From: Longimicrobiales bacterium
GTDB taxonomy: Bacteria > Gemmatimonadota > Gemmatimonadetes > Longimicrobiales > Gaopeijiaceae
Length of the DNA stretch: 64,000 nt
Reading direction: 5' to 3'
NCBI GenBank assembly: GCA_965249725.1
Contig: CBDFMQ010000002.1
Coordinates: 2,400,001 to 2,464,000, forward strand
The notes under the pieces were generated by a model. The model worked only from the letters and a program-made list of their open reading frames with translations, was not told the DNA's origin and did no database searches. Position 1 is the stretch's first letter. Every line of letters starts with the position of its first letter. Of the stretch, positions 32,204 through 54,481 are shown in pieces. The translations under genes were made by a program, and so were the position numbers.

Positions 32204-32263
32204 CGAAATCCCCCTCATTCGGGTCGTTCTGAGACTCGCGCCGACGATCATCAAGCGGCCCGC

Positions 32264-33898
32264 CTACCGGCCGAATCGATACGTCGGTCCGAAGTAGTAT
32301 GGCTCCCCCGGCCTCCCCCGCTCCCGGTATACCGGATGCTCGTCGTCGAGCGACGGCATGCCGTCCAACTCCGAGAGGTGCCAGGCCAACCGCACCGCCC
32401 GCTTCGCCATCTCGGCCGGCGACTCCATGGTGAACGTTCGTTCGTCGAAGTTGTCGGCGGGCCGATGGCGCCACTCGTCGTAGTACTTGAGGCGATCGGC
32501 CAGACCGACCTGCCAATCCCCGTCGACCGTATGCCCGGGCTTGAGGTCGATCGCCGGTACGCCCGCCAGAAGGAAGGGGTAGTGATCAGACGAGAAGCCG
32601 ACGAGGCTCGTGAGCGCACGATCCCGCTCCATGACGCCAACGCCCGTCTCGGCCATGACGTCTCGTACGATGCGCCGCAGATCCGAGAGGTCCGCGGCGT
32701 TGTCGATCACGTCCTCGGTGGCCACACCCTCCCTTCCGCCGTCCTGGTTGATGTTGGCGACCATCCGTTCGACCGGAAACGCCGGGTTGCGGACGTAGTA
32801 CCACGATCCCAGGAGCCCCCGCTCCTCCGCCCCCACTGCGGCGAACACCACGGACCGGCGGGCTCGTAGGCGCACCATCGCCTCAGCTGCGGCCAAGAGC
32901 TTCGCGCTGCCGATCGCATTGTCGTGCGCACCGTTGTTGATGGAGTCTCCTGATGCGTTCGGGGATCCGATCCCCACGTGGTCCAGGTGCGACGTAAAGA
33001 CGATGGACTCGTCCCGGTGCGCCGGATCCGTTCCCGGCACGATGCCGACGACGTTCCAGCTCCGCACGGGCTCGAGTCGGTGCGTTCGAGTCAGGCCGAC
33101 CGACTCGACAGAGGCGGCACGACTCTCGCCCAAGTCCGCGAGCGCGGTCGCCTCACCGGGGTCGATGCCCCACGCCTCGAGTAGCCGCCAGCTCCCTTCC
33201 GCCGTGACGGTCGCGTGGGCCCGGACTCTCGGTGCGGTCCCGTCCGCGAGGGCCAGGACACGGCGTGGATTGCCGGGTGGCTGCGAAGGTCGAGAGACGG
33301 CGGGATCTCGAGGCGTGCTCAACTGGACGACCACGGCCGCACCTCGCCGGATCGCGATCTCGACTGCCGCGTTGGCGGCGCGAGCCCGATTCCGGTCGGC
33401 GGCCCACTCCTCGGGCTGGCCCCTGAGCAGGAAGACCGCCTTGCCGGACACGTCGGCGCCCATGTAGTCGTCGCGTCCGTGGGTCGCGAGCCCGTAGCCG
33501 ACGTAGACCCCCTCGCCCGTCCAGCTCGCCGAGCCGTCGAGCCACGACGGCTCGAACCTCGCGTCGGGCTCCTGCAGGCGAAGGTCCCCCGCCCGAAGCT
33601 CACTCCCGAGATCCTCCACGGCCTCCAACAGATCGAACGGCTGTAGGTACGAATCTCCGTCGAGGGGGGTCAGACCGATGCGGCCGAACTGCGTAGCCAC
33701 GTATTCCTTGGCGATCTCGAATCCGCGGTCATTGGTGTCGCGACCGCGGAGCATGTCGTGCGAGAGAAACCTCACATGGCTTTTCACGAGCGCGGGGGTG
33801 ACCACGTCCAGGGCCTCGGCGACCGGATCGTGCTCCTGGCAGGCGCTAGCCCCCGTCAGGGACACCCCAAGCGTCACGTAGACCCAAGTCGTCCGCAT
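32264..33898 (-). CDS. M28 family metallopeptidase lipoprotein with PA domain
   Basis: SHLDHVG, NGAHDNA, AEERGLLGS, NINQD, SDHYPF and HRPAD motifs; GASAC lipobox. Confidence 0.9.
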   Translation of the reverse strand: MRTTWVYVTLGVSLTGASACQEHDPVAEALDVVTPALVKSHVRFLSHDMLRGRDTNDRGFEIAKEYVATQFGRIGLTPLDGDSYLQPFDLLEAVEDLGSELRAGDLRLQEPDARFEPSWLDGSASWTGEGVYVGYGLATHGRDDYMGADVSGKAVFLLRGQPEEWAADRNRARAANAAVEIAIRRGAAVVVQLSTPRDPAVSRPSQPPGNPRRVLALADGTAPRVRAHATVTAEGSWRLLEAWGIDPGEATALADLGESRAASVESVGLTRTHRLEPVRSWNVVGIVPGTDPAHRDESIVFTSHLDHVGIGSPNASGDSINNGAHDNAIGSAKLLAAAEAMVRLRARRSVVFAAVGAEERGLLGSWYYVRNPAFPVERMVANINQDGGREGVATEDVIDNAADLSDLRRIVRDVMAETGVGVMERDRALTSLVGFSSDHYPFLLAGVPAIDLKPGHTVDGDWQVGLADRLKYYDEWRHRPADNFDERTFTMESPAEMAKRAVRLAWHLSELDGMPSLDDEHPVYRERGRPGEPYYFGPTYRFGR

Positions 33899-33905
33899 CA
33901 AGCGC

Positions 33906-35639
33906 TCAGCCTCCCCCGGTATTCGGAAGCGCAAAGTGGAAGGCTGCCCCCCCGTCGGGATTCTGCTCCGCCCACAGCCGACCGGAGTGGGCCTCGATTA
34001 TCGACCGACTGATCGAGAGACCCATCCCCAGGCCGTTCGGCTTTGTCGTAAAGAAAGGATCAAACATGTTCTCGGCGATGGAAGGCTCGAGTCCGACCCC
34101 TTCGTCGAGCACGACCACCTCGGCCTCCTCGGCACCCCTGTTGCACGTCCGGATGGTCACCCTGCGCGGGGCGGCACTATCGTCTTGGGTCGCGTCGATG
34201 CTGTTCAGAAGGAGGTTCATCAGAACCTGCTGTAGCTGAATCCGATCGCCTTCCACGAGGGAAAGATCGGGGTCGAGATCCATCTCGAACAAGGTGTTGC
34301 TCAGGATCGCTTCTTTCCGCAGGAGGACCACCACTTCCTCCACGAGGCCATTCATGTGCAGCGGGGAGCGCTCCTGCTCGCCCTTTTCGAGCAAGGCCCG
34401 CATTCGCCGAATCACCTGTCCCGCTCGCCGAGCCTCATCAGAGATGTCGACCAACGCCGCGCGGGCCTCGTCACTGTTCGGCCGCTCGCCGTCCAGAAAG
34501 TACCCAACGGCTACCGCATTGGCTGCGATCGCCTTGAGCGGCTGATTCAACTCATGGGCCAACGATGCCGTGAGTTCTCCCATGGTGGCCACCCGTGAGA
34601 CGTGGGTGAGCTCTTCAGCGAGCCTTCCGGCGCCGGCCTCCCACTCCAGATCACCCAATACATTGGCAAACAACTGGCCCACGATGTTGTCTCGCTCCAT
34701 CAAGACGCTCGGCCAATCGGGCGAATCTCGATGAGTGAACGCAGCCACCGAGCCGAGTAGTCTTTCACCCTGAAGCAGGGGCATGGTAAGGCCCGCCTTC
34801 ACATGGTTCTCTTCGACGACTTCTCTGAAGGTCTCCCATCGACTGGGAATCTCCTCGACGTGTGCGAAGAAGTGCGCGTCCCCACCCTCTAAAAGGGTGA
34901 CCACGTCCGAGAACCCTCTCAGCCCCTCTCGCCGAACGGCTCGGAGCCTGGGTGTCTGTTCACCGCGGGTCCACTCATAGGCTCCGGCACTCACAGAGTC
35001 GTCGTCGGACATATGTATGAGAACACAACGGTCCGCGCCGAGGAACTTCCCCAAGTGCTCCAGTGCACGAACGATGGCCCCACGCAGCTGGGCGTGGGGC
35101 GCTTTGGCAAAGGCCGTCGACACATCCGAGACCATTTGCTGAAAGGCGAGGCGTTCCTCGAGTTTAGCGTTCGCAGCCTCAAGCTCCTCGGCCTTCTCAC
35201 GGAGCTTTGCCTCGGCCTCCTTCAGTTTCGTAATGTCGGTGTGCGCCCCAAGCAACCGGATCGGATTCCCCTCGGCATCTCGGATCGCGACGCCCCTGCA
35301 CCGCACCCACACCGTAGATCCATCGCGATGACGGTAGCGGACGACTTGATCGTATGGGTGTGTCGCATCGGAACAATGACTCTCAAAGTTCGCGATCACC
35401 CCCGGGAGATCCTCCTCGAAGATTAGGTCCTTCCACTCGGAAGTCAGGTGCTCGCGCTGACTAGGATCTTGTCCGAAAACCGTCCAAAAGCGGGGACTCA
35501 TCCACTCATGATTCGGGTTCTCAAGGTCCCAATACCAGATACCGTCCAGTGACCCCATTTGGATGAACTCGAATATGCTGCTATCGGACTTGATCAGTGT
35601 ATAGAGTTCATCTTTGAGATAGTGGTCGGCTTCGCTCAT
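33906..35639 (-). CDS. PAS-GAF sensor histidine kinase (FixL/TodS-like)
   Basis: PAS (DGIWYWD...HRDGSTVWVRCRG), AHELNQPL, QLQQVLMNLLLN, PFFTTK and GMGLSISRSIIEAH motifs. Confidence 0.93.
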   Translation of the reverse strand: MSEADHYLKDELYTLIKSDSSIFEFIQMGSLDGIWYWDLENPNHEWMSPRFWTVFGQDPSQREHLTSEWKDLIFEEDLPGVIANFESHCSDATHPYDQVVRYRHRDGSTVWVRCRGVAIRDAEGNPIRLLGAHTDITKLKEAEAKLREKAEELEAANAKLEERLAFQQMVSDVSTAFAKAPHAQLRGAIVRALEHLGKFLGADRCVLIHMSDDDSVSAGAYEWTRGEQTPRLRAVRREGLRGFSDVVTLLEGGDAHFFAHVEEIPSRWETFREVVEENHVKAGLTMPLLQGERLLGSVAAFTHRDSPDWPSVLMERDNIVGQLFANVLGDLEWEAGAGRLAEELTHVSRVATMGELTASLAHELNQPLKAIAANAVAVGYFLDGERPNSDEARAALVDISDEARRAGQVIRRMRALLEKGEQERSPLHMNGLVEEVVVLLRKEAILSNTLFEMDLDPDLSLVEGDRIQLQQVLMNLLLNSIDATQDDSAAPRRVTIRTCNRGAEEAEVVVLDEGVGLEPSIAENMFDPFFTTKPNGLGMGLSISRSIIEAHSGRLWAEQNPDGGAAFHFALPNTGGG

Positions 35640-35915: not shown

Positions 35916-36608
35916 ATGTCAGATATGAGTGCAAGTATGACGCAGAGTCCGAGGACCGACGGGTTTCAGCGTGTGGGAACCGTCTTCCTGGTGGACGACA
36001 ACACCGCGGTCCGAACCGCACTCGCCAGGGTCTTCCAGTCCGTGGGGTACGAGGTTCATCGGTTCGACTCCGCCAAAGCGTATCTCGAAGAGGTGTCCCC
36101 GGAAGATTCGGGATGTCTCGTGCTGGACATCAAAATGCCTGGCATGACCGGGCTCGACCTGCAAGAGCGGTTGTCCACCCTCGGATTCACAAACCCCATC
36201 ATCTTCATAACCGGCTATGGCAACGTTCCGGCCAGCGTTCGCGCCATGAAATGGGGCGCAGTGGACTTTCTCGAAAAGCCACTCGACCACCAGGAGTTGC
36301 TGGATGCGGTGGAACGGGCCGTGAAGCAGGATGCCGACGACAGGGAACGGCAAAGCGATCGGGCCGACGCCCGGCTCACGTTCGAACTCCTAACCCCGCG
36401 AGAGTTCGAGGTCATAACGTGCATGGTTGGCGGCATGCCGAACAGAGAAATCGCGCAGGAACTCGAGATCAGTGAGAAGACCGTTAAGATCCACCGTGGA
36501 CGTGTCATGAAGAAGATGGGGGCGCGGTCGCTGGCGGACCTCATGCGTATGGCTCGGGGCGCCGGCATCGAACATCGCCGGACGGACGCACCTCCGATTT
36601 CCACCTGA
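35916..36608 (+). CDS. FixJ-like response regulator (REC + LuxR HTH)
   Basis: FLVDD, LDIKMPGMTG, FITGYG, DFLEKP and LTPRE...TVKIHRGRVMKK motifs; start uncertain. Confidence 0.93.
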   Translation: MSDMSASMTQSPRTDGFQRVGTVFLVDDNTAVRTALARVFQSVGYEVHRFDSAKAYLEEVSPEDSGCLVLDIKMPGMTGLDLQERLSTLGFTNPIIFITGYGNVPASVRAMKWGAVDFLEKPLDHQELLDAVERAVKQDADDRERQSDRADARLTFELLTPREFEVITCMVGGMPNREIAQELEISEKTVKIHRGRVMKKMGARSLADLMRMARGAGIEHRRTDAPPIST

Positions 36609-36618: not shown

Positions 36619-38040
36619 CTACCGGATCACCTGCGGCTGGTCGGGGCTCTGATCCCACATCTGCGCGCTCGAGATGTTGGGCATGTTCCAGTCGTTCCCG
36701 TTCCAGCCCTGGAAGCCCTCCATCCTGAACGCCCAGAACCCGGTGTTGAAGTCGCTCACCACGATCAGACCGTCGGCATTGCGGACGTCCACACCCCAGG
36801 CCCCGTCGTAGATGTTGCCGGTAGTGGCGAAGGCAGAAAACAAAGCTTCGCCGTGGAGGCTGGGGCCCTGCCGCGTGTGGTAATACGCCTCGGTGAAGGG
36901 CCGCGTGGGATCCGTCATGTTGACGATCTGGAGTCCGTCGTCCTGGGCGGAGATGAAGACGTACGGCCACCGGACCTCATGGTTGTGGGTCGCACCCCCG
37001 AACTTTGCCATCCAAGCTCCGATCCCGGATCCCCTGACGATGTTGGGCGTCTGTCCCTCGGAGCCGGGAGGCTGCAGATCGAAGAAACGGATCGGGGAGT
37101 GCTGATAGGTGGGCCCGGACATGCCGAGCCCGTACCGTCCGTCCGGCGTGGGCGTGAAGGTGTGCCCGTTCGCGACTCCCGGGATGCCGGTGACCGAGGT
37201 GAGGAGCCGCGGGTTCTCGACGTCCGTGAAGTCGAAGACGTGGTAGCCCCCGGTCCCGGCGCCGTAGAAGCGATCCTGCCCGACGTCAGGCAGGAAGCCC
37301 AGGTACATGTCGTGCCACTCACGGGCGCGGGTGGCCGAGGGTTGGGGCACGCTGACCGCGGAGACCGGGTCGGTGTTGCCCGCCGCGACCTGCGCGATGT
37401 CGTACACGAAGGCGTCCTCCGACGTGGTCGTTGCGACCAGGAGTGAGCGGCCGTTTGAGTGCTTGTAGGTGAAGATGTTGTGAAAGCCCCCGGGCAGTCC
37501 TGGGACCCGCAGGTCCGCCACCTTGCGCACCGTCGACGCATCGGGTAACCCGGTCACGTCGAAGACCATCGCCCCTAGGTCGGCGTCGGGCCCGCCCTGC
37601 CCGAACTCGCACGAAACAATGAGGTAGTAGCGGCCCTCGGCCTTGGCGTACCTCGGATCGAGACATCCGGAGCCGAGGTGAAGATCGGGGTCGTCCACGA
37701 TGTAACGGTAGAGGACCTTCGGACGTTTCTCGTCCTCGAGGCTGATGGCGTAGAAGCCGGCCGCGCCCCCGCGTTGCGCGATGTAGACGAAAGGCCGATC
37801 GAGCTCCTGTTCGATCTCGATGTCGGCGTGGCTAAAGCGCTCGCCCGGGAGAGGAATGTGCGAGACGACCTCGATATTGGGGGTGCCGCGCAGACCCACC
37901 GTGTAGCCCGTCTCGGGCTGCAGGCAGGTGGGGTCGCCGAAGCAGGTCACCTGGGCTAGCGCACTCGAAGCCGAAAGGCCGACGGCGAGGGCTACCATGA
38001 TGAGCGCATACGGAACCGGCATCGCTATTCGCTGGTGCAT
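36619..38040 (-). CDS. Secreted LVIVD-repeat beta-propeller protein, paralogue P1
   Basis: Signal peptide then QVTCFGDPTC; LVIVD-like units (HVFDFTDVENPRLL, GLQIVNMTDPTRP, LIVVSDFNTG). Confidence 0.85.
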   Translation of the reverse strand: MHQRIAMPVPYALIMVALAVGLSASSALAQVTCFGDPTCLQPETGYTVGLRGTPNIEVVSHIPLPGERFSHADIEIEQELDRPFVYIAQRGGAAGFYAISLEDEKRPKVLYRYIVDDPDLHLGSGCLDPRYAKAEGRYYLIVSCEFGQGGPDADLGAMVFDVTGLPDASTVRKVADLRVPGLPGGFHNIFTYKHSNGRSLLVATTTSEDAFVYDIAQVAAGNTDPVSAVSVPQPSATRAREWHDMYLGFLPDVGQDRFYGAGTGGYHVFDFTDVENPRLLTSVTGIPGVANGHTFTPTPDGRYGLGMSGPTYQHSPIRFFDLQPPGSEGQTPNIVRGSGIGAWMAKFGGATHNHEVRWPYVFISAQDDGLQIVNMTDPTRPFTEAYYHTRQGPSLHGEALFSAFATTGNIYDGAWGVDVRNADGLIVVSDFNTGFWAFRMEGFQGWNGNDWNMPNISSAQMWDQSPDQPQVIR

Positions 38041-38076
38041 GGATCTCTCCCTGATATCAGGGCCCCCAAGGGGACA

Positions 38077-39501
38077 CTAGTTCCTCTGTTGTTGTGCAAC
38101 GTCGGGCTCTTCGTCCCAGAACTGAGCGCTCGAGATGTTGGGCATCGCCCAGTCGTTCCCGTTCCAGCCGTTGAAGCCTTCGAGTCTGAACGCCCAAAAG
38201 CCGGTGTTGAAATCGCTCACCACAATGAGTCCATCCGCGTTGCGGATGTCGACGCCCCAAGCGCCATCGTAGATGTTTCCCGTCGTGCCGTATGCTCCCC
38301 CGAACATGGCGTCACCGTGAAGGCTGGGGCCCTGCCGCGTGTGATAGTAACCTTCGGTGAAAGGGTGCGATGGATCGGTCATGTTGACGATTTGCAGTCC
38401 GTCGTCTTGGGCGGAGATGAACACGTACGGCCACCGCATCTCGTGGTTGTGGGTCACGCCGCCGAACTTTGCCATCCAGGCTCCGATCCCCGACCCCCTG
38501 ACGATATTGGGCGTCTGTCCCTCCGACCCGGGCGGCTGCAGATCGAAAAAGCGAATCGGCGCATGCTGATAGGTCGGCTCGGACATCCCGAGGCCATATC
38601 GCCCGTCGGGCGTGGGCGTGAACGTGTGGCCGTTCACGGTCCCAGGGATGCCTGTGACCGATGTGAGAAGCCGAGGGTTCTCTACGTCCGTGACGTCGAA
38701 GACGTGATATCCCCCCGTGCCGGCCCCGTAGAAGCGGTCCTGAGCGGCGTCGGGGAGGAACCCGAGGTACACGTCGTGCCATTGTCGGGCGCGGTCGGCC
38801 GAGGGTTGGGGCACGCTGACCGCCGAGACCGGATCCGTGCTGCCCGCCGCGACCTGCGCGATGTCGTATATGAATGAGTCCTTCGACTGGGTGGTTGCGA
38901 CCAGGAGCGAGCGTCCGTTCGAGTGCTTGTACGTGAAGATGTTGTGGAAGCCCCCAGGCAGGCCCGGGACTCGTAGGTCTGCCACCTTGCGCACCGTCGA
39001 CGCATCGGGTAACCCGGTCACGTCGAAGACCATCGCCCCCAGGTCGGCGTCGGGCCCGCCCTGCGCGAACTGGCAGGACACGATCAGGTAGTACCGCCCC
39101 TCCGCCTTGGCGTACTTCGGATCGAGACATCCGGAGCCGAGGTGGAGATCGGGGTCGTCTACGATGTAACGGTAGAGGACCTTCGGAGTCTGCTCGTCTT
39201 CGAGGCTGATCGCGTAGAAGCCGGCCGCGCCGAAACGCTGTGCGATGTAAACGAAGGGCCGATCCAGCTCCTGCTCGATCTCGATGTCGGCGTGGCTAAA
39301 GCGCTCGCCGGGCAGCGGAATGTGCGAGACGACCTCGACGTTCGGCGTACCGCGGTGCCCCACAGGGTAGCCCGTCTCGGGCTGCACGCAGGTTGGGTCC
39401 CCGAAGCACGTCACCTGCGCCGGTGTGCGGGAGGCCGTGAGGCTCATGGCGATCGCCGCCAAGGCGAGCACATTCAATACGGGCGAGGTTCGCTGGTGCA
39501 T
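38077..39501 (-). CDS. Secreted LVIVD-repeat beta-propeller protein, paralogue P2
   Basis: Full-length colinear paralogue of P1. Confidence 0.85.
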   Translation of the reverse strand: MHQRTSPVLNVLALAAIAMSLTASRTPAQVTCFGDPTCVQPETGYPVGHRGTPNVEVVSHIPLPGERFSHADIEIEQELDRPFVYIAQRFGAAGFYAISLEDEQTPKVLYRYIVDDPDLHLGSGCLDPKYAKAEGRYYLIVSCQFAQGGPDADLGAMVFDVTGLPDASTVRKVADLRVPGLPGGFHNIFTYKHSNGRSLLVATTQSKDSFIYDIAQVAAGSTDPVSAVSVPQPSADRARQWHDVYLGFLPDAAQDRFYGAGTGGYHVFDVTDVENPRLLTSVTGIPGTVNGHTFTPTPDGRYGLGMSEPTYQHAPIRFFDLQPPGSEGQTPNIVRGSGIGAWMAKFGGVTHNHEMRWPYVFISAQDDGLQIVNMTDPSHPFTEGYYHTRQGPSLHGDAMFGGAYGTTGNIYDGAWGVDIRNADGLIVVSDFNTGFWAFRLEGFNGWNGNDWAMPNISSAQFWDEEPDVAQQQRN

Positions 39502-39533
39502 GGATCACTCCTGAGTGTTCGTCAACCAGGTTT

Positions 39534-40946
39534 CTAGTTCATCGGTGGCGCATCGTTGGGCCCGTCGTCCCAAAACTGAGCGCTCGAGACGTTGGGCATC
39601 GCCCAGTCGTCCCCGTTCCAACCGTTGAAGCCGTCGAGCCGGAAGGCCCAGAATCCAGTGTTGAGGTCACTCACCACGATGAGCCCGTCCGCGTTGCGGA
39701 TGTCCACGCCCCAGGCGCCGTCGTAGATGTTGCCTGTGGTCGCGTTGCCCGTCGGGTCGCCAAAGAGCGCGGGGCCTTGCCGGGTGTGGTAGTAGGCTTC
39801 GGTGAAGGGGTGAGTGGGATCGGTCATGTTGACGATCTGGAGTCCGTCGTCCTGGGCGGAGATGAAGACGTACGGCCAACGCATCTCATGGTTGTGGGTC
39901 GCCCCCCCGAACTTGGCGATCCAGGCTCCCACCCCCGACCCCCTGACGATGTTGGGCGTCTGTCCCTCGGAGCCGGGAGGCTGCAGATCGAAGAAGCGGA
40001 TCGGCGAGTGCTGGTAGGTGGGCTCGGGCATGCCGAGCGCGTAGCGCCCGTCCGGGGTGGGCGTGAAGGTGTGGCCGTTCTCGACCCCCGGTACGCCGGT
40101 AACGGAGGTGAGGAGCCGCGGGTTTTCCACGTCGGTGATGTCGAAGACGTGGAATCCCCCCGTTCCGGCGCCGTAGAAGCGATCCTGCTCGGCGTCGGGC
40201 AGGTAGCCCAGGTACATGTCGTGCCACTGGCGGGTGCGAGTGGCCGACGGTGAGGGGACGGCGATCGCCGACACTGGATCCGTGTTGCCCGCCCCGACCT
40301 GCGCCATGTCGTATACGAAGGCGTCCTTCGACTGTGTGGTCGCGACCAGCAGAGACCGGCCGTTGGTGTGTCTGTAGGTGAAGATGTTGTGAAAGCCTCC
40401 GGGTAGACCCGGCGGTCGGAGGTCGGCGACCTTCCGCACGCTGGAACCGTCCGGTAACCCGGTCACGTCGAAGACCATCGCTCCCAGGTCGAAGTCGGGC
40501 CCGCCCTGCCCGAACTGGCAGGACACGATCACGTAGTAGCGGCCCTCCGCCTTGGCGTACTTGATGTCCACGCATCCCGTGCCGAGGTGCAGGTCGGGGT
40601 CGTCCACGATGTAGCGGTACAGGACCTCAGGATGCTCCTCGTCCTCAAGGCTGATGGCATAGAAACCCGACCCGTTGAGCCGCTGCGAGATGTACACGAA
40701 CGGCCGATCCATCTCCTGCTCGATCTCGATGTCGGCGTGGCTGAAGCGCTGCCCGGGTAGCGGGATGTGTGAGACGACATCGATGTTGGGCGTACCTCGT
40801 TGGCCCACTGCGTAGCCCGTCTCCGGTTGAATGCAGGTAGGGTCGCCGAAGCACGTCACCTGGGCGTGGGCACTGGCAGCCATGAGGCCGACAGCGAGGG
40901 CCGACACCGCGAGCGTAACCGGAGTCGGTATTGTTCGCTTTCGCAT
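39534..40946 (-). CDS. Secreted LVIVD-repeat beta-propeller protein, paralogue P3
   Basis: Full-length colinear paralogue of P1. Confidence 0.85.
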   Translation of the reverse strand: MRKRTIPTPVTLAVSALAVGLMAASAHAQVTCFGDPTCIQPETGYAVGQRGTPNIDVVSHIPLPGQRFSHADIEIEQEMDRPFVYISQRLNGSGFYAISLEDEEHPEVLYRYIVDDPDLHLGTGCVDIKYAKAEGRYYVIVSCQFGQGGPDFDLGAMVFDVTGLPDGSSVRKVADLRPPGLPGGFHNIFTYRHTNGRSLLVATTQSKDAFVYDMAQVGAGNTDPVSAIAVPSPSATRTRQWHDMYLGYLPDAEQDRFYGAGTGGFHVFDITDVENPRLLTSVTGVPGVENGHTFTPTPDGRYALGMPEPTYQHSPIRFFDLQPPGSEGQTPNIVRGSGVGAWIAKFGGATHNHEMRWPYVFISAQDDGLQIVNMTDPTHPFTEAYYHTRQGPALFGDPTGNATTGNIYDGAWGVDIRNADGLIVVSDLNTGFWAFRLDGFNGWNGDDWAMPNVSSAQFWDDGPNDAPPMN

Positions 40947-41128
40947 GGATCACTCCTAACGTACTTGAAGCCTTGATAGAATACGTTCAGGTGGTGACGG
41001 GCTGGACATGGTCCGTCTGTTGGGCCGCTCGACGGTACTGCCCACCACCGACATTTGGGCGCGCACCGCCTTCTACGCCGACGGAGCCAGGGACGCAGCA
41101 GCAGCTATCAACCCGCGCATGATCCCCC

Positions 41129-42547
41129 TCAGCGGATCTGCTGTGGCTGATCCGGGCTCTGGTCCCAGTTCTGCGCGCTCGAGATGTTCGGCATGTTCCA
41201 GTCGTTTCCGTTCCAACCCTCGAATCCGTCGAGCCTGAACGCCCAGAAGCCGGTGTTGAGATCGCTCACCACGATGAGTCCATCCGCGTCCCGAATGTCG
41301 ATCCCCCAAGCGCCGTCGTAGATGTTGCCAGTGGTGGCCTGGCTCGGCCGTTGGCCGTTCCCATAGAGCATGGGACCGATGCGTGTGTTGTAGTACCCGA
41401 CCGTGTAGGGGTGCGAGGGGTCGGCCATGTTGACGATCTGCAGCCCGTCGTCCTGGGCCGAGATGAACACGTAGGGCCACCGGATCTCATGGTTGTGGGT
41501 CGAGCCCCCGAACTTGGCGATCCAGGCTCCGATGCCGGACCCCCTCACGATGTTCGGAGTCTGCCCCTCCGATCCCTCGGGCCGTAGGTCGAAGAAGCGG
41601 ACCGGTGAGTGCTGGTAGGTGGGCTCGGGCATACCGAGTCCGTAGCGCCCGTCCGGCGTGGGCGTGAACGTGTGCCCGTTCTCCACGCCGGGTACGCCCG
41701 TGACGGAGGTTAGGAGACGAGGATTCTCCACGTCCGTCATGTCGTAGACGTGGAAGCCTCCCGTGCCGGCACCGTAGAAGCGGTCCTGTCCGGCGTCGGG
41801 CAGGAACCCGACGTACATGTCGTGCCACTGGCGGGTGCGCGACCCGGAGGGCTGAGGAACGGAGATCGCCGAAACGGGGTCGAGATTACCTGATGCGAGT
41901 TGGGCGATATCGTAGATAAAGGCATCCTCCGACTGGGTCGTCGCCAACAACAGAGACCTTCCGTTGGAATGCCGGTACGTGTAGACGTTGTGGAAGCCCC
42001 CCGGAAGATCGGGCAGCCTGAGCTCCGCGACCTTCCGAACTGTCGACGCGTCCGGCAGTCCGGTCACGTCGAAGATCATCGCACCGAGATCGAAGTCCGG
42101 ACCGCCCTGGCCGAACTGGCAAGAGACGATCACGTAGTAACGGCCCTCGGCCTTGGCGTACTTGATGTCCACGCATCCGGTGCCGAGGTGGAGGTCCGGG
42201 TCGTCCACGGTATACCGATAGAGGACCTCGGGGTGAGCCTCATCCTCGAGGCTGATCGCGTAGAACCCCGACGCTCCGAACCGCTGAGAGATGTAGGCAA
42301 ACGGGCGATCCATCTCCTGCTCGATCTCGATGTCGGCGTGGCTGAAGATCACCCCCGGTAAGGGTTGGTGTGAGACGACCTCGATGTTCGGCGTGCCCGG
42401 CCTGCCCACGGGATAGCCCGTCTCCGGCTGGACGCAGGTCGGATCGCCGAAGCAAGTCACTTGCGCCGACGTGCCGGACGGCGACCAGCCGACAACGATC
42501 GCCGCCAACGCGAGTGTGAACCACAAAGGTGGTGTTCGGTGGTGCAT
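41129..42547 (-). CDS. Secreted LVIVD-repeat beta-propeller protein, paralogue P4
   Basis: Full-length paralogue; start MHHRTPP with GGAGCAATCC-ATG, matching the other three. Confidence 0.85.
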   Translation of the reverse strand: MHHRTPPLWFTLALAAIVVGWSPSGTSAQVTCFGDPTCVQPETGYPVGRPGTPNIEVVSHQPLPGVIFSHADIEIEQEMDRPFAYISQRFGASGFYAISLEDEAHPEVLYRYTVDDPDLHLGTGCVDIKYAKAEGRYYVIVSCQFGQGGPDFDLGAMIFDVTGLPDASTVRKVAELRLPDLPGGFHNVYTYRHSNGRSLLLATTQSEDAFIYDIAQLASGNLDPVSAISVPQPSGSRTRQWHDMYVGFLPDAGQDRFYGAGTGGFHVYDMTDVENPRLLTSVTGVPGVENGHTFTPTPDGRYGLGMPEPTYQHSPVRFFDLRPEGSEGQTPNIVRGSGIGAWIAKFGGSTHNHEIRWPYVFISAQDDGLQIVNMADPSHPYTVGYYNTRIGPMLYGNGQRPSQATTGNIYDGAWGIDIRDADGLIVVSDLNTGFWAFRLDGFEGWNGNDWNMPNISSAQNWDQSPDQPQQIR

Positions 42548-42595
42548 GGATTGCTCCAAGAAAAACAAGCGAGAGGTCTTCGAAGTTGCCGTCCT

Positions 42596-42688
42596 TACAG
42601 AGACGGCTGAACACGAAACACATGTTCGCACGTGTCCGCCCGTTCAGCCGTCTCTCTGTACCCTAGGAAGTGCCTGGCGAGCAGGCAC
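42596..42688 (-). other. Two intergenic stem-loops between the OMP gene and the LVIVD array
   Basis: 14-bp perfect stem AGAGACGGCTGAAC/GTTCAGCCGTCTCT with an inner hairpin; second hairpin GTGCCTG-N5-CAGGCAC. Confidence 0.6.
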
Positions 42689-42709
42689 CAACCCTACGCG
42701 TCCGGTGAC

Positions 42710-43312
42710 CTATAGATTCGGAACGAAAGTAAGCCCTACGCTCAGGCTCGTGTCGTACTGCGTTCCCTCGCCGGTGCTGGTTCGTCCGTAGAACCACTTC
42801 GAGCCCTCGACGAAACCCTCGAAGGATGAATCCGAAAGCGGAAGCGCGAGGCCGCCGCCCACACGACCGGCAACCTCGGAGAACTTGTAGTTCCTGCTGG
42901 GAGCCGTCCGATCGACCGTCACCATGCCACCACCCGCGATGAGGTAGGGGATTACCCCCGACACAGGAAAGCGGGCCTCCACCGCCGCGCCGTAGTAGAT
43001 GCGGTTAAAGTCCACCCCCTCGCCCGCCAAGACAGTGGTTTCTTGACCGCTACTCCACGCTTTCGACACGTCGCCGCGGACCGCCACGTTCGGGCTCATC
43101 CGGAACCTCAGCGTCGCGCCGATGTGGTACGCTGCGTCGAACTCGGTATCTCGAAACACGTCGAAGCCTCCGGGATCGGTCGTAAAGCCCCCGAAGCCGC
43201 TGAACCCAACCACGGTGCCGGGGGTCTGAGCCATCAGGGGCGACACGGAGGCACCAAACGCGACCACCACGAGGGCTGCGAAGCCCGCCCTGGTTCTGCA
43301 TGTAAAGTTCAT
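42710..43312 (-). CDS. Outer membrane beta-barrel protein (OmpA/OmpW-like 8-strand type)
   Basis: Signal peptide, alternating amphipathic strands, PYLIAGGG and terminal SVGLTF. Confidence 0.75.
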   Translation of the reverse strand: MNFTCRTRAGFAALVVVAFGASVSPLMAQTPGTVVGFSGFGGFTTDPGGFDVFRDTEFDAAYHIGATLRFRMSPNVAVRGDVSKAWSSGQETTVLAGEGVDFNRIYYGAAVEARFPVSGVIPYLIAGGGMVTVDRTAPSRNYKFSEVAGRVGGGLALPLSDSSFEGFVEGSKWFYGRTSTGEGTQYDTSLSVGLTFVPNL

Positions 43313-43367
43313 TTCGTCTACTCTCGTTTCACGGGAGCCTAAGGGGAGTCGGCGACTTCTCACTTTC

Positions 43368-44813
43368 TCAGTTGACGTCCCACCATACCGGCGTGGTGGG
43401 GCTGTCCCCCCCCTGCCGGGCTATCGCCTCAGCCAAGTTGGACTTGTTCAGATCTTCCTCGTTCGACGGATAAGGCGCCCGTAACGGGACCATGGGCTCG
43501 ACCGCTGCCGGTCCCGGCACCAAAGCGGGAATGCCCGTCCGACGGTAGTTCGCCCACGCTTCCATCCCGTTGTCGAACAGCGCGATCCACTTCTGGAACG
43601 CGATTTGCTCACTCCACGACGCAGGATCGTACTGGATGCGTGGCTGCGCCAAGTAATCGTCGATCTGTGCCTCCGGCACCTCGATTCGGGTCATCGCGGC
43701 ACGGATCCCGTCATGGTAGAACTCGGCCGGGTCTCCGGCGATCCACCCTCGGGCGGCCGCCTCGGCCTTGAGGAAGAGGACCTCTTCCAGTGTCATGAGC
43801 CACGTCGGCCGATCCGCCTCCTGGAACCACAAGCCCATGCGGGAAAGGCTTTCGAACGCAAGTCCGTGGGTGTCCGGCGTACCGTTGTCCTTCCCGACGT
43901 AGGTGTCGGTCTCGAAGGCCGCCTGGTACAACACGGCGATTCGGGGATCGTTTGTGCTCTTGAGCGAATCCGTCAGTGTGAGGCTGGCCCGGTAATCGTT
44001 GGGCCGGTTCCGGAAATACTCGGACCAGGGCTGCTCGTTGGGTGGCGCCCCGGGGTACTTCAGCGAGGCCGCTTGACCGGCATCGGTAATCGTCCCGTCC
44101 AGCACCGCCGACGCCACTACGGACTGAGCCCGCCCTGGATCGACTTCCGTCAGGCGCATGCCTGCCCGGAGGCGCACAGAGTTGGCAAAGCGTCGCCACG
44201 CCTCCATGTCCCCCTCATACAGGATGTCGAAGGCCGGGGCGGAGAAGAGGCTCTGCGAGGTCGTGATCATGTCCTGCGCCGACTTCAGGTCGCCGAGAAT
44301 GGCGTCGTAGATGGCGGCCTGGGCATCGTACACCGGGGATATGGGTCCGTCGGTACCCTGGGCCGACTGGGAGAAGGGGATGTCGCCCCAGATATCGGTC
44401 ATCACCTGGAACATCCACGACCTGTATATGAGCCCCACCGCCTCCACGTTGGGCCGCTGTTGCTCCCGACCCTGCTCGACCACTGCTTGAATGTCGACCA
44501 CTGGTCCGAGCCAGAACGCCTCCCAGCGGCCGTCGGAGAAGGTGGCCGGCATCTCATACCGGTCGTCATATCCGTAGTCGAGCGAAGCGTAGTGCTGCAC
44601 CCAAGGGCTAGCCCAGTCCATGCTGACCGATCTCTGGCCCAGCACCGTGTTCACGCTCTCCTGAATCAGTGCCGGCATCAGGAACTGCGCGTCCACCACC
44701 TCGGGGGCGTTGGGGTTCCGATTGACCTCGGTCAGGCTGTCCGTATCACATCCCGCCGAGAGCCCGACCACGAGGGCAAGGCCCAAAGCCGTGACTCCTC
44801 TTGTTGTATTCAT
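43368..44813 (-). CDS. SusD/RagB family nutrient-binding outer membrane lipoprotein
   Basis: LSAGC lipobox; NRNPN, TDIWGDIPFS, PVYDAQ, WRRFANSVRLR, QKWIALF and VWWD motifs. An alternative start at 44897 is possible. Confidence 0.92.
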   Translation of the reverse strand: MNTTRGVTALGLALVVGLSAGCDTDSLTEVNRNPNAPEVVDAQFLMPALIQESVNTVLGQRSVSMDWASPWVQHYASLDYGYDDRYEMPATFSDGRWEAFWLGPVVDIQAVVEQGREQQRPNVEAVGLIYRSWMFQVMTDIWGDIPFSQSAQGTDGPISPVYDAQAAIYDAILGDLKSAQDMITTSQSLFSAPAFDILYEGDMEAWRRFANSVRLRAGMRLTEVDPGRAQSVVASAVLDGTITDAGQAASLKYPGAPPNEQPWSEYFRNRPNDYRASLTLTDSLKSTNDPRIAVLYQAAFETDTYVGKDNGTPDTHGLAFESLSRMGLWFQEADRPTWLMTLEEVLFLKAEAAARGWIAGDPAEFYHDGIRAAMTRIEVPEAQIDDYLAQPRIQYDPASWSEQIAFQKWIALFDNGMEAWANYRRTGIPALVPGPAAVEPMVPLRAPYPSNEEDLNKSNLAEAIARQGGDSPTTPVWWDVN

Positions 44814-44893
44814 CCGTCTGCTCCGATTTTCAGGCGATCTCGGCTCGTTCGTTGAGGCACTGGTGCCTCTCGTTTCCCTCCGTTCGCCGCAGC

Positions 44894-47800
44894 TCATCGG
44901 AAGCTCACCGTGAACCCGATGCTCCGGGGAGTCGGGTTCAGGAACAGCTCCATCCCCTGGGCGTTCCCGCTGCTCGAGGTGAGCTCGGGGTCGATGTGCG
45001 GCACGTCGCTGAAGGCCAGGAGGTCCCGCCCCACGATCGCGATGCGGCCGCTCGAGACGGGCATCCTCCGGATGAGGGCCTCGGGGAAGGCGAAGCTCAA
45101 GGCTACCTCACGGAGCTTGACGAAGCTCGCGTCGTGCATGACGCGTTCATAGGCGTCGCTGTAGAGGTTCCGCCAGTACACCGTCAAGGGCAGGCCAACG
45201 TCGTTCGGCGTGCCGTCGGGCTTCACCCCTTCGTGCACGAGCGAGAAGGTCTCGCGTCCTGCCAGGGTCTCGATGAGCTGGCCGGTCCGCCGCTGGATCG
45301 CACAGGTCTGGCAGAAGATGTCCCCGCCTTTACGGACATCCAGCAGAACGGTGAGGTTCAGCCCGTGATAGCTGAAGGTGTTCCGGATGCCGGCCATCCA
45401 GTCCGCCTGGAAGTTCCCCAAGACCTGCTTCGTGTCCGTAGGGATCACGCGTCCGTCAAAGCCCACCATGACCCGGCCCTGGGCGTCCCTTTGGGACACC
45501 TGCCCCATCATGGTGCCGTAGGGCTCGCCGACCCGCGCCTCGACCGTTGCGCCGCGGCCCCCGCCGAGCACGATGGTCTCCAAACCTTCGGTGAGAGAGA
45601 TCACCTTGCTTTTGTTCGTCGACCAGTTCGTCTGGGTCGTCCAGGTCAGCCCGTTCACGTTGCGAAGGATGTCGAGGCCGAGCACCAGCTCGACGCCCTT
45701 GTTCTGCACCTCGCCCGCGTTCAGTAGGCGCTGGGCATATCCCGTGGTGTGGGAGATGTCCACGGGGAGGATCTGGTCGCTCGTGTTCGTCTTGTAGTAC
45801 GTCAGATCTATCATTCCGCGATCGTTGGCGAAGCGCAGCTCGGTGCCGACCTCGAAAGAGATGGTCTCCTCCGGCCGGAGTTCGCTGTTCGCGAGCTGGT
45901 TCGGGTGGGTAAAGCTGGGCGTGGACTCCCAGAACGGGCCTTGGCTGAAGACCGAGAGGAGCTGGAACGGTGCGGCTGCCGCGCCCACCTTCGCCCAACT
46001 TCCCCTGAGCTTGGCATAGGAGATAAGCTCGGGAAGCTCCAACACGTCACTCAGAACCAGGCTGCTCGACACCGAGGGGTAGAAGTACGAGTTGTTGTCC
46101 GCAGGGAGGGTCGACGACCAGTCTTTTCGGCCGGTTACATCGATGAAGGCCCAGCTCCGGTAGGAGAGCGTGGCCAGGCCATATAGGGAGTTCACGTGCT
46201 CCTCACCGAGGTACTGGTTCACGATCGGTGGTCCCGCGGAGTTCCCGACGTTGTATAGGCCCGGTACGTTCAGGCGCTCAACGTGCGTCAAGTTTTCGTC
46301 AACCAGGTTCCGCCGGATGTTGCCTCCAGCCCGGGCCGTGATCTGCACGTCGTCGGTCGGGTTGACATCCGCGGTGATCAGAAACTCGGCATTCGTTTCC
46401 TGCCGGTAGACCTTGTTGTTGATGAACTCACCCTCGGGATGTATCAGGCTGGCTGCCGGATGCTGCTCGAACCGCCGATGCGCCGACCAGTCCGTGCCGG
46501 CCCGGCCCATGGCGCTCAACCACCCGTTGAACTGGTACTCCCCCCTGATATGGCCGATGAATCGGTCCCGCGTGTCGTTGGTGGTCCGCTCCGAGGTGGT
46601 GTAATAAGGGCTGTCGAAGAAGTTGTGGTTCCAGTTCGGAATCCGGTCTTCCGGATGTCCGCTACGGGGGGTTTCACCCGTTTCCTTCCAAGCCTCGTAT
46701 GCACGCTTCAGCCGGTCGGTATCGTTCTGACGCTGCCAGTAGCTCAGGTTGATCGCAATGCTCTCAGGGAATCCCCGGAAGCGGGGGCGGTTCGACCCCT
46801 CGGTCTTGATGTAGCTGCCGGCACCGGTGACGCTCAGCCTATCCGTGAGGTCCAGACCACCGGCCAGGTTGAAGGTCTGACGCTTGAGCCCCGAGGTATG
46901 AACGAGCCCCGCCGCGTCCATCACAGTCGCGGAGAAACGGACGTGTCTGCCCTCTCCGGCCGCGGAAACGGCCAGGTTGGTGGTGGAGTTGTGTCCCGTC
47001 TCGAACATCTTGCGGGGACTGTAGGGACTGGGCAGGAACGCCTGTGGGTTCTCGTCCCACCACTGCGAGTACAACGTGCCGTCCATCGCCGGACCCCAAC
47101 TCTCGTCGGTGGCGTCGTTGAAGCCCGCCCCGGCGCCGTTCACCCAGTTGTAGCCGGCGGGCGTCTGGCCGCCGCCGTACAGGTTCTGCAACGTCGGCAT
47201 CTTGGCAGGAGTGCTAAAGGTGATTCCGGTGCTTCCCTCGACCTGGAAGCCGCTGGCCCTGGACCCGTTCTTGGTCGTGATGAGAATCACGCCGTTGGCC
47301 GCCCGGGAGCCGTACAGTGCTGCCGCGTTGGCGCCCTTGAGAATGGTGACGTCCTGGACGTCCGCGGGATTCAAGTCTTGAATCCCGTTTCCGTAGTCGA
47401 CTCCGCCGGCGCCCAGGTAGGTCACGCCGAAGTTCCCCGTACAGCCGGTGTTGCACTCGGCGTTGGAGCTGTTATCCACCGGGACCCCGTCCACGATGAA
47501 GAGGACCTGGTTGCCCCCGGAGATGGAGTTGAAGCCCCGGAGCACGACGCTCGAGGAGCCGCCAACGGGCCCCAGGTTCTTCACCACCAGACCCGCCGCC
47601 TTTCCCGCCAAGGTCGCAGAAATGTTATCCGTTGGCACCTCGCTGATAGTCGATCCGCGGATGTTGTCCACCGCATAACCGAGGCCCCGCTCATCCCGGC
47701 TGATGCCGAGAGCCGTGACGACCACGCCCTCGATTTCGATGGCCGAGAGGTCGAGGACGAAGTTGACAGGGACCGTCTGGCCAGCCTGAACCGTCACCTC

Positions 47801-48076
47801 TTGGCTTACGGTGGCGTACCCGATCAACTGAGCTGTGATCGTGTGAGTTCCGGCCGGCACACTCTGGATGACGTACCGACCGGTCCTGTTGGTCAGGGCC
47901 CCCATTTGCACGTCTGCGATCGATACCTGGCCACCCTCCAGCCCGATACCATCCGAGCCGGTGACGCTACCACTGATGATGCCCGTCTGTTGTGCCTCTA
48001 TGCCCTGGGGCAAACAGAAGACAAGAGTCGCCACCACTACTGCCAATGCTGTCAGCTGACCAATGTTCGAACGCAT
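44894..48076 (-). CDS. SusC/RagA family TonB-dependent transporter
   Basis: Carboxypeptidase-regulatory-like N-domain; VVVTALG, LFIVDGVP, ILKGANAAALYGSRAANGVILITTK and LRPEET motifs; AAGGAGG RBS. Confidence 0.95.
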   Translation of the reverse strand: MRSNIGQLTALAVVVATLVFCLPQGIEAQQTGIISGSVTGSDGIGLEGGQVSIADVQMGALTNRTGRYVIQSVPAGTHTITAQLIGYATVSQEVTVQAGQTVPVNFVLDLSAIEIEGVVVTALGISRDERGLGYAVDNIRGSTISEVPTDNISATLAGKAAGLVVKNLGPVGGSSSVVLRGFNSISGGNQVLFIVDGVPVDNSSNAECNTGCTGNFGVTYLGAGGVDYGNGIQDLNPADVQDVTILKGANAAALYGSRAANGVILITTKNGSRASGFQVEGSTGITFSTPAKMPTLQNLYGGGQTPAGYNWVNGAGAGFNDATDESWGPAMDGTLYSQWWDENPQAFLPSPYSPRKMFETGHNSTTNLAVSAAGEGRHVRFSATVMDAAGLVHTSGLKRQTFNLAGGLDLTDRLSVTGAGSYIKTEGSNRPRFRGFPESIAINLSYWQRQNDTDRLKRAYEAWKETGETPRSGHPEDRIPNWNHNFFDSPYYTTSERTTNDTRDRFIGHIRGEYQFNGWLSAMGRAGTDWSAHRRFEQHPAASLIHPEGEFINNKVYRQETNAEFLITADVNPTDDVQITARAGGNIRRNLVDENLTHVERLNVPGLYNVGNSAGPPIVNQYLGEEHVNSLYGLATLSYRSWAFIDVTGRKDWSSTLPADNNSYFYPSVSSSLVLSDVLELPELISYAKLRGSWAKVGAAAAPFQLLSVFSQGPFWESTPSFTHPNQLANSELRPEETISFEVGTELRFANDRGMIDLTYYKTNTSDQILPVDISHTTGYAQRLLNAGEVQNKGVELVLGLDILRNVNGLTWTTQTNWSTNKSKVISLTEGLETIVLGGGRGATVEARVGEPYGTMMGQVSQRDAQGRVMVGFDGRVIPTDTKQVLGNFQADWMAGIRNTFSYHGLNLTVLLDVRKGGDIFCQTCAIQRRTGQLIETLAGRETFSLVHEGVKPDGTPNDVGLPLTVYWRNLYSDAYERVMHDASFVKLREVALSFAFPEALIRRMPVSSGRIAIVGRDLLAFSDVPHIDPELTSSSGNAQGMELFLNPTPRSIGFTVSFR

Positions 48077-48087
48077 CTGAACCTCCT

Positions 48088-48113
48088 TGAACGATTCGCC
48101 CTGAACGATTCGC
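48088..48113. repeat. 12-bp direct repeat TGAACGATTCGC x2 next to the susC RBS
   Basis: Copies at 48088-48099 and 48102-48113. Confidence 0.6.
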
Positions 48114-48192
48114 GTGTGGCGCCCCCTGGCGCCTTGATACAGTCGTTGAGAATGCCAAGGCCCCGGATACGACCAAGATCCTACATGCATAC

Positions 48193-48229
48193 ACTACAAA
48201 CGACGTATCACATACTACAAACGACGTAT
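48193..48229. promoter_or_regulatory. 16-bp perfect direct repeat ACTACAAACGACGTAT x2 (21-bp period) in the susC promoter region
   Basis: Copies at 48193-48208 and 48214-48229; TTGACA on the minus strand at 48246-48251. Confidence 0.7.
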
Positions 48230-48380
48230 ACGGTCGGGGCGAGGTTGTCAAGGACGGCGGAGGCCTGGCCGGGGCTGCGGAGCAACATCGTCCGGAAGGA
48301 GCCGGCCGTTGCCAGGCCTGCTTTAGAGGAGGTGCGCCGCCTGGCAGCGCGGGAGAAACGGCCAGTCGCGGTAGCCCTCG

Positions 48381-48848
48381 CTACTGATCCGGTAGTCCCT
48401 TGCTGTTGATCTCGATCACCCCTCTCGGGTATCCCATCCCGAATCTGACGCCCGCCGGCCCGGGGCCCCAGAACCGAAGCCCACCGATTTGCATCGCGCT
48501 CACGGTCCAAAGGTAGTCGATCCCGCCCACGAACTGACCGTCCACGAAGACGTCTGCGTACCTCGACGTTCGATCGGTGATGGAGTTGACCCCGCGGGTC
48601 CGCAACCACTGGGGCCGGAGCACCTCGATGATCTCGTAGGCAGAGTGGAACTCGATCTGGTCGATTTCGTACTCCGAGATCCAGTTGGGGTCTGGGGGGT
48701 CTTTCGCCGAGCCGGTTTCCTCGGTCCGACTCGTAGGTGAGGCGCCCGGATGGAGAGGGGCGCAACCCATCAAAAAGGGGAGAGATGCAAGAAGGACGGT
48801 CGCAATCACCGCGGTCCGAAAAACTCCACTGCTGGTGCGATTGTCCAT
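48381..48848 (-). CDS. Small lipoprotein resembling a stand-alone TonB-receptor plug domain
   Basis: FLMGC lipobox; ISEYEI...SAYEIIEVLRPQWL...VFVDG...RFG...GVIEINSK follows the plug pattern. Confidence 0.7.
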   Translation of the reverse strand: MDNRTSSGVFRTAVIATVLLASLPFLMGCAPLHPGASPTSRTEETGSAKDPPDPNWISEYEIDQIEFHSAYEIIEVLRPQWLRTRGVNSITDRTSRYADVFVDGQFVGGIDYLWTVSAMQIGGLRFWGPGPAGVRFGMGYPRGVIEINSKGLPDQ

Positions 48849-49347
48849 TGGAGAGGGCGACGGGAAGCATACGCATGCCAACACGAATGATATATAGCCG
48901 TGGCACACCCGTCCGTCCAGCAAGCTGTCCGCCGAGAAAAGCCTTTGCGCACCGCAATACCGGCGAGAGCACGCATCCACGGGTATCTCGTGGCCGTCCA
49001 TCCCCGGCGTGTTAGTAGGTTGTCCAGATGGTACCTGCCCGCGCAGGCAGAAACGCCTGCGTACTCCACACTGCCCTCTGGCGCTCGGCCGACGGCCCCC
49101 ATAGGCTTGGCAAAAGCCCGTCGTACGACAAAAGAACTATCGGTCACCAGGAGCTTGCCAGGCGTCGTCGCTCAGGGGTTGTGAGGAGCGTGCGGCAACG
49201 CCGATTGCCTATGCGGCGGGTCGGGTCGCAAGATGGCTCGACTCTTAGCCCAGCCGACCCCACCCGTCGAGATCCAAGTGTCGGTAAACTCTACATCCAT
49301 AGCTAGCCCTCCACGTCGCCGCCTGGCGCATCAGGCGGGACCGACCG

Positions 49348-54434: not shown

Positions 54435-54481
54435 CGGAGGTAGCGGACGCGCCGGACTGGACCCGGTGGTGGACCCCGAAG

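Follow-up and report, generated by a model that had tools for sequence, protein, structure and literature searches.

A SusC/SusD locus with an array of uncharacterised propeller paralogues in a Longimicrobiales bacterium

We found that eight genes of a Longimicrobiales bacterium (Gemmatimonadota) form a non-glycan SusC/SusD (SusCD) locus with an uncharacterised cargo family. They lie in a stretch of 64,000 nucleotides (contig CBDFMQ010000002.1, positions 2,400,001 to 2,464,000; hereafter the window) and encode, in this order, a plug-like lipoprotein, SusC, SusD, a small beta-barrel outer-membrane protein and four secreted, histidine-rich propeller paralogues (g4, g3, g2 and g1). Our explanation, held tentatively, is that the locus could serve peptide import that feeds periplasmic, probably copper-type metalloenzymes, the propellers, which would be served in trans by a secreted protein (X) and a multicopper oxidase encoded elsewhere in the genome.

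The locus and its four propeller paralogues

Inspection of the open reading frames in the window placed all eight genes on the minus strand (Table 1), as a preliminary description of this DNA had it. The susC and susD genes are adjacent on the same strand, 80 bp apart, and thereby identify a SusC/SusD utilisation locus. The plug-like lipoprotein gene starts the run 304 bp upstream of susC, and the gaps from the barrel gene through g4, g3, g2 and g1 measure 162, 182, 32 and 36 bp. SusC scored above the TIGR04056 cut-off (517 versus 368 bits). In a PDB search its closest solved relative was BT2264 (E=1.6e-110 over residues 105-1057), while the next solved SusC reached 4e-28 and RagA only 1e-23; it is thus through BT2264 that the protein belongs to the BT2264/RagA type. 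SusD passed the PF12771 cut-off, and its solved relatives in the PDB were mixed SusD proteins (best 5j5u, E=6e-48; BT2263, E=4e-19). The barrel protein scored 28.4 bits against PF13505 (cut-off 28.7), and all four barrel genes of the genome adjoin a SusCD-propeller locus. The plug-like lipoprotein had no Pfam match of its own. Its paralogues stand beside other SusCD loci, not always co-oriented with them, and two in the genome match Pfam Plug weakly.

SusCD without carbohydrate-active enzymes had been described here, and our Pfam scan of 124 window and neighbouring proteins indeed detected no glycoside hydrolase. The only sugar-related matches in that scan were a glycosyltransferase, partial CBM9/DUF5916 proteins and generic esterase folds. 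Among the three families tested across the genome (96% complete), two GH3 proteins are encoded elsewhere, and GH2 and GH43 were not found. As no glycan enzymes are among the window genes by Pfam (the CAZy library was not used), the locus does not qualify as a polysaccharide utilisation locus. The proposed non-polysaccharide substrate class agrees with this and with a SusC that is far closest to peptide-bound BT2264. BT2263/64 was solved as a peptide complex (PMC7782687), and RagAB imports oligopeptides (bioRxiv 10.1101/755678). In addition, genome G015, in which no propeller was matched, carries the same barrel-susC-susD module flanked by M24, M28 and S9 peptidase genes (L117; L numbers denote loci and G numbers genomes). 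Past the kinase gene, the window also carries M28 and S9 peptidase genes, and peptidase and amidohydrolase genes are about four times as frequent near propellers (15/157) as among other genes (78/3449), counted with queries picked from these neighbours. From these comparisons, peptides or peptide-like compounds would be the likeliest cargo. Our search for literature on Gemmatimonadota SusC proteins and peptides returned nothing relevant.

The nearest known systems are BT2261-BT2264 (PUL27) of Bacteroides thetaiotaomicron and RagAB of Porphyromonas gingivalis, which share with the window a SusC/SusD pair without adjacent glycoside hydrolase and small accessory proteins nearby. The window locus differs in its Gemmatimonadota host, its extra small barrel, its free plug-like lipoprotein and the propeller array behind. 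To our knowledge, neither of the known loci contains an array of signal-peptide propellers.

Each of the four paralogues carries, judged by eye, a signal-peptide-like N-terminus ending in Ala. The mature proteins all begin with QVTCFGDPTC, hence with Gln, and a lipobox Cys is absent. The motif GGAGnnATCC-ATG precedes all four genes and only 6 of the 3651 called starts genome-wide; the preliminary description had concluded from it that the duplicated unit included the ribosome-binding site. Histidine makes up 3.0-3.4% of the residues of the four proteins, compared with a genome average of 2.0%. The other three proteins share 87, 81 and 79% identity with the first copy, and DNA identity among the four is 77-85% over the mature part. 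With 0.64-1.26 synonymous substitutions per site (dS) and a nonsynonymous-to-synonymous ratio (dN/dS) of 0.10-0.16, all four copies are under purifying selection. With orthologues in a related genome (L041, L045) at a dS of 0.13-0.69, the four copies predate the split from the related species.

We also considered whether the four copies are assembly duplicates. Contigs of four runs from four studies bridge the g1/g2, g2/g3 and g3/g4 junctions, and one contig extends from within g4 across the barrel gene, susD and susC to beyond the plug gene; this support is pieced together from several contigs, none spanning the whole locus, and one run is possibly the source sample. Because other runs bridge every junction, and given the identity of 79-87% and the dS values, assembly duplication is ruled out. 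Upstream of susC, at 48168-48231, there is a short direct repeat (TATACGTCGTTTGTAGT / GATACGTCGTTTGTAGT), and 21 bases within it, at 48193, are missing from one sequencing run. The repeat is a possible regulatory site or slippage point. A promoter and terminator scan gave no promoter-like and seven terminator-like sites, not above shuffled sequence.

Predicted fold and metal site of the propellers

The label given to the propellers, LVIVD or choice-of-anchor B, is less secure than described, with matches that fall under both curated cut-offs: LVIVD (PF08309) matched only one of the four copies, at 19.3 bits (cut-off 20.2), and choice-of-anchor B (TIGR04312) gave 24-27 bits over about 100 residues (cut-off 100). 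The broad blade type is the same, and some records name relatives 'LVIVD repeat-containing protein'; the window propellers are set apart as single-domain secreted proteins with a conserved histidine ring and a C-terminal tail. Scoring of 8000 candidates yielded at least 2216 homologues. Nearly all of these are unnamed, and the closest clusters in the Atlas comprise Gemmatimonadota 'LVIVD repeat' or hypothetical proteins. In the openly accessible literature, with subscription papers and supplements outside the search, we found no description of the family, nor of a function for LVIVD or choice-of-anchor B propellers; on LVIVD, only a 2004 repeat survey and one preprint bear on it. A Tenderiales LVIVD protein was discarded as a guide: it is only proposed, without test, as an attachment protein and is uninformative here. 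The iodide oxidase IoxA/IoxC was considered as a model and likewise dropped.

The AlphaFold2 model of g2 comprises seven four-stranded blades (predicted local distance difference test, pLDDT, 93.2; predicted template-modelling score, pTM, 0.92). A wide structural search matched it to seven-bladed propellers with Z of about 31 and a root-mean-square deviation of 2.7 over 305 residues. The hits were generic WD40-type propellers with tied scores, so that the predicted fold is that of a generic seven-bladed propeller. The top Foldseek row was 5hrm, the haloalkylphosphorus hydrolase Sb-PTE of Sphingobium sp. TCM1 (E=4.3e-10), with a negligible lead over WD40 proteins (4.8e-10); neither Sb-PTE nor copper propellers were among the best 50 of the wide search. 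By sequence, no solved protein other than Sb-PTE gave a significant profile match (E=1.5e-5 and 1.3e-5). The family had been thought to lack a characterised relative; a remote one exists, then, at about 15% identity and E of about 1e-5.

Four histidines of g2 (His158, His214, His264 and His323, mature numbering) start the inner strand of blades 3-6. Each is present in 130-131 of 131 aligned sequences, and 270 of 296 non-redundant family sequences retain the complete ring, as do 43 of the 44 full-length copies of this genome. The idea of a metallo-propeller gains a concrete candidate from this ring, and the blade register of the model predicts a metal site at the four histidines. One propeller copy of this family (L017:6750-8198) has no His158. 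Among ring-less propellers, 24 of 26 are the divergent first gene of Rhodothermales-type arrays (most of L074-L089; L060, L063, L067-L069, L091, L092, L100), suggesting that this first-gene propeller may be a conserved non-catalytic subunit.

Sb-PTE is described as holding a binuclear centre in a seven-bladed propeller. The window family shares with it (PDB 5hrm, 5ioj) the fold and histidines on successive blades. We take the Sb-PTE ligands to be Glu201, His258, His317, His389, Glu407 and His475, with Glu201 presumably the bridging ligand and Glu407 the second carboxylate. We set the four invariant histidines against these histidine ligands by blade register; His323 precedes by 16-17 residues the segment whose alignment begins at residue 493 of 5ioj, a position that fits His475. 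Residue 201 of 5ioj is Glu and aligns, in a weak 3.6-bit segment backed by the blade register, to family position 98, where the 270 ring-intact sequences have Met (147), Leu (64) or rarely an acidic residue (2), and the window copies Leu or Val. The likely equivalent of Glu407 is position 278, 14 residues after His264; it is Glu in 217 of 270 sequences and Met in all four window copies. Thus, the window copies appear to carry neither carboxylate ligand, and the family is built on an Sb-PTE-like scaffold, yet seems not to reproduce the binuclear site.

The window copies additionally gain Asp338, His42 and two Cys pairs, and by position Asp99 or Asp338 could stand in for the lost carboxylate. 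Of the 270 ring-intact sequences, 226 have Met at one of three positions on the rim; Met98 coincides with Met278 in a single case, and in 176 cases one is present without the other, although these relatives are not independent. A putative His/Met ligand set leans towards copper. Thiocyanate dehydrogenase, methanethiol oxidase and nitrous oxide reductase are seven-bladed copper propellers with axial His ligands and copper-handling or electron-accepting partners. Their likeness to the window family is a functional analogy only, without a sequence match in the PDB and without a place among the best 50 of either fold search. In the 44 full-length copies of this genome, variation is higher in the loops of the histidine face than in those opposite (1.63 versus 1.08 bits; loop-level P=0.005), as expected of enzymes or binders with differing substrates.

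Partners of the family across genomes

This genome encodes 45 propeller copies in 22 clusters, many of them in one 250-kb zone, and the family accounts for 1.7% of coding residues (20,899/1,244,416). Clusters beside SusCD hold 13 of the 45. The window subtype has 11 copies: four here, four in another array and three single. A propeller lies within one intervening gene of four of the five SusC/SusD pairs, and eight genes from the fifth. With a chance per site of 0.023 genome-wide and 0.20 in the densest zone, such linkage has P=1e-6 and P=0.007, respectively, for sites that are not independent. Loci with the window's SusD type had propellers at 3 of 5 sites in G002 and 1 of 3 in G001, in a count that covers all 21 matches outside G000.

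For the neighbourhood analysis we examined 95 propeller loci, 20 of them chosen and 75 kept from at least 558 matches, a set that leans to close relatives. SusCD, scored with home-made profiles, lay within 3.5 kb at 11 of these loci (10 distinct stretches in seven genomes, each of Gemmatimonadota or without a lineage label). Propellers also have neighbours from a second subfamily of SusC/SusD, the SusD_RagB type (L033, L041, L043, L061, L064, L093, L113): in L064, susC-susD is followed by eight propellers, and L033 has susC-susD-X-oxidase-propeller in one orientation. At G000:C3:43852-46601, a SusC of this second subfamily is split into two frames, and a SusD of that type was not detected beside it. 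Hence the recurrent linkage to SusCD asked for by the preliminary description exists, with two subfamilies and in seven genomes, but SusCD does not stand out as the defining partner, for the pair of X and multicopper oxidase is about four times commoner (42 versus 11 of 95 loci).

Members of the array are not constant either. Behind orthologous susC-susD-barrel genes there is one propeller in L046, and L045 has three plus an inserted reverse-strand gene; in L041 the g3-g2-g1 orthologues lie elsewhere, where a SusD fragment, a small lipoprotein and two S9 peptidases are encoded upstream of them. A fixed quartet, assessed by sister-species synteny, is ruled out by these differences in cargo among L041, L045 and L046. 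The notion of four dedicated paralogues was thus abandoned: copies number 45, with 13 beside SusCD, and those behind susCD vary between related genomes. In a midpoint-rooted FastTree tree, from which sequences of fewer than 370 profile positions and exact duplicates were left out, the SusCD-adjacent copies came from several clades.

Two other genomes of the genus have at least 40 and at least 20 matches, fragments included, and other genera of the order one to four strong matches or none. Arrays of 3-8 occur also in one Gemmatimonadales genome and many Rhodothermales. A copy with an internal stop (L018:7488-8450) is probably a pseudogene. A ten-gene array (L003:10961-19330 and L004:1-9453) ends in X and oxidase, is interrupted by a reverse-strand kinase-like gene and is followed by a convergent FG-GAP/LVIVD protein. 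The closest relatives of the window subtype outside the genus are single genes of Acidobacteriota (L047-L051, 65-73% identity) with no SusCD or oxidase nearby, a possible transfer.

Clustering of the neighbours revealed X and the multicopper oxidase as the dominant pair, usually in the order propeller(s)-X-oxidase; one or both lay within 2.5 kb at the 42 loci. X is a secreted protein of 170-200 residues without a Pfam match. Its fold is a beta-sandwich, and its tail carries the conserved motif MHT-x-AGH-x(7)-C. Foldseek gave no match for it at E=0.001 or better, and it weakly resembles Cu/Zn superoxide dismutase (SOD), CCS and Tp34/P19/FetP folds (E above 0.01). Among related genomes with a full propeller match, X accompanies the family in 19 of 21, and it was present in 12 of 12 further propeller genomes. 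For its 45 propellers this genome has four X matches and three oxidases, one of them fused to X (L009). The oxidase N-terminus is Met-rich. All three oxidases keep the type-1 copper ligands and have RWHG and NCQ in place of the oxygen-site motifs HWHG and HCH, that is, His-to-Arg, His-to-Asn and His-to-Gln changes, a pattern shared by 6 of 41 oxidases of other genomes.

Around the locus, the block of LuxR-type regulator and kinase and the M28/S9 peptidase block are both colinear in L041. In L041 and L045 alike, the LuxR-type regulator lies after a g1-like gene, and it could control the propeller array. Positions 34001-36000, within the kinase/regulator region (33906-36608), have a lower GC (guanine plus cytosine) content of 0.59. 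Beyond the plug gene, 49233-55759 is a compact catabolic cluster with a TAXI-type TRAP transporter, an FAD oxidoreductase, a DHDPS-family aldolase and a mandelate-racemase-family enzyme. The window also encodes three Ser/Thr kinases of the expanded Gemmatimonadota type (8075-10108, 55442-58504 and 58506-61190), two with PD40 propeller repeats.

Table 1. Genes of the locus, its context in the window and the oxidases found beside propellers
Feature	Position	Strand	Basis or remark
Small lipoprotein resembling a free TonB-receptor plug domain	48381..48848	-	Open reading frame and lipobox LMGC
SusC/RagA TonB-dependent transporter	44894..48076	-	TIGR04056, 517 bits; closest solved relative BT2264
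SusD lipoprotein lid, SusD-like_2 type	43368..44813	-	PF12771, E=2e-96
Small outer-membrane beta-barrel protein	42710..43312	-	PF13505, E=2e-6
Propeller paralogue g4, 472 aa	41129..42547	-	Also found after the barrel gene in related genomes
Propeller paralogue g3, 470 aa	39534..40946	-	
Propeller paralogue g2, 474 aa	38077..39501	-	AlphaFold2 model, seven-bladed propeller
Propeller paralogue g1, 473 aa	36619..38040	-	End 10 bp from convergent response regulator
LuxR-type response regulator (context)	35916..36608	+	Pfam; divergent from PAS/GAF histidine kinase
PAS/GAF histidine kinase (context)	33906-35639	-	Pfam
M28 and S9 peptidase genes downstream of kinase (context)	30077..33934	-	Pfam
Multicopper oxidases beside propellers	L004:7702-9453, L009:8601-10751, L014:3899-5707		All three altered at oxygen site

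Candidate functions and their weighing

In the reading that we tentatively favour, SusCD would import oligopeptides or peptide-like nitrogen compounds into the periplasm, and the secreted propellers would act on the imported material as periplasmic metalloenzymes, probably of copper type. The four histidines, with nearby Met and acidic residues, would bind the metal at the propeller mouth, and the variable loops around it may set substrate choice. X and oxidase, from their four and three other sites in the genome, would load or re-oxidise the metal in each of the 45 copies, so that a single maturation system would serve many enzymes. The row of genes behind susCD may be an accordion of interchangeable family members rather than a fixed four-step pathway. 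This account draws on gene order, selection, SusCD recurrence, histidine conservation and X/oxidase co-occurrence, together with a predicted fold.

Several observations weigh against it. Outside the genus, only 1 of 13 loci of the window SusD type has a propeller, and SusCD was found at 0 of 24 Rhodothermota/Bacteroidota and 0 of 8 Acidobacteriota propeller loci, some of them on short contigs. In this genome, 32 of the 45 copies are not beside SusCD. X and oxidase are both absent from the window, and 0 of the 11 window-type copies are in a cluster within 2.5 kb of either. Of 20 genomes that lack a full propeller match, 7 carry X as well, six of them in long fused frames. With three oxygen-site histidines lost, the three oxidases cannot be ordinary oxidases. 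The nearest solved relatives of SusD include glycan binders, and BT2262-64 is a locus without clearly defined substrate (PMC8121099). The enrichment of peptidase and amidohydrolase genes near propellers is inflated by queries picked from the neighbours themselves. The ring geometry was deduced from the blade register of the model, not from atomic coordinates, and among the four window copies diagnostic residues favour the histidine face only slightly (22/106 versus 14/93 and 27/187). Finally, kin are not independent in the counts of linkage, X and residues.

A more far-reaching version holds that His4/Met propellers, diversified to 20-45 copies in some Gemmatimonadota, form an undescribed copper system that oxidises SusCD-imported peptides, with an oxidase relative that retains its type-1 copper, has no oxygen site any more and therefore relays electrons, and with X as copper chaperone; we regard this as rather doubtful. 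The propellers might instead be Mn, Zn or Fe hydrolases like Sb-PTE that cleave amide, ester or phosphoester bonds, the oxidase link being one of metal supply only. Such a hydrolase would suit Sb-PTE as sole significant solved sequence relative and top Foldseek row, the apparent match of the four histidines on successive blades to its ligand set, the Glu kept after His264 in 217 of 270 sequences and the often hydrolytic neighbours. We nevertheless consider it somewhat unlikely, as most sequences have Met, Leu or Val at the position aligned with Glu201 and 2 of 270 an acidic residue, all four window copies replace the second Glu by Met, and Sb-PTE leads WD40 proteins negligibly in Foldseek and is missing from the best 50 of the wide search. 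The link to multicopper oxidase and SusCD and the up to 45 copies per genome also distinguish the family from Sb-PTE.

Non-catalytic roles are unlikely in our estimate: the propellers would bind metal ions or metal-peptide complexes that the transporter delivers, in the manner of BtuG or XusB, or store copper beside a cuprous oxidase. The Met-rich oxidase N-terminus, as in copper-handling oxidases, and the weak likeness of X to SOD, CCS and Tp34/P19/FetP folds would fit, and the 24 ring-less sequences leading Rhodothermales-type arrays imply that the site is dispensable in some members. For TonB-dependent transporters, the propeller partners BtuG and XusB are known (PMC10404256, PMC13142918), and their genes likewise lie beside the transporter gene. 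Both are, however, surface lipoproteins of non-SusC transporters, whereas the window propellers start with Gln in place of a lipobox Cys and lie behind a SusC/SusD pair whose SusC is of the BT2264 type, not of BtuB or siderophore-receptor type. Moreover, where 45 copies combine a nearly invariant site with variable surrounding loops, enzymes of differing substrate choice are a better fit than binders of one metal ligand. Mere co-location, with the family spreading by duplication or recombination into uptake-rich islands and the array not functionally coupled to SusCD, appears quite improbable. It would explain the 22 clusters and the 250-kb zone, the origin of SusCD-adjacent copies from several clades and the changing cargo (four propellers here, three in L045, one in L046, and g3-g2-g1 elsewhere in L041). 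Against that, the link recurs with two SusCD subfamilies in two orders, the displaced L041 block is again preceded by a SusD fragment, along with a small lipoprotein and two S9 peptidases, and linkage of four in five pairs still has P=0.007 in the dense zone.

Most SusCD loci are interpreted via their sugar enzymes, and those without such enzymes are largely unexplained. Because 1.7% of coding capacity falls to one unannotated family that stands beside four of five SusCD pairs, our analysis suggests that this is a chief way in which an uncultured lineage of Gemmatimonadota feeds. LVIVD-like propellers thereby gain a concrete predicted metal site and partners, and Sb-PTE, a hydrolase of flame retardants, may have arisen from a natural background of which the family is an example.

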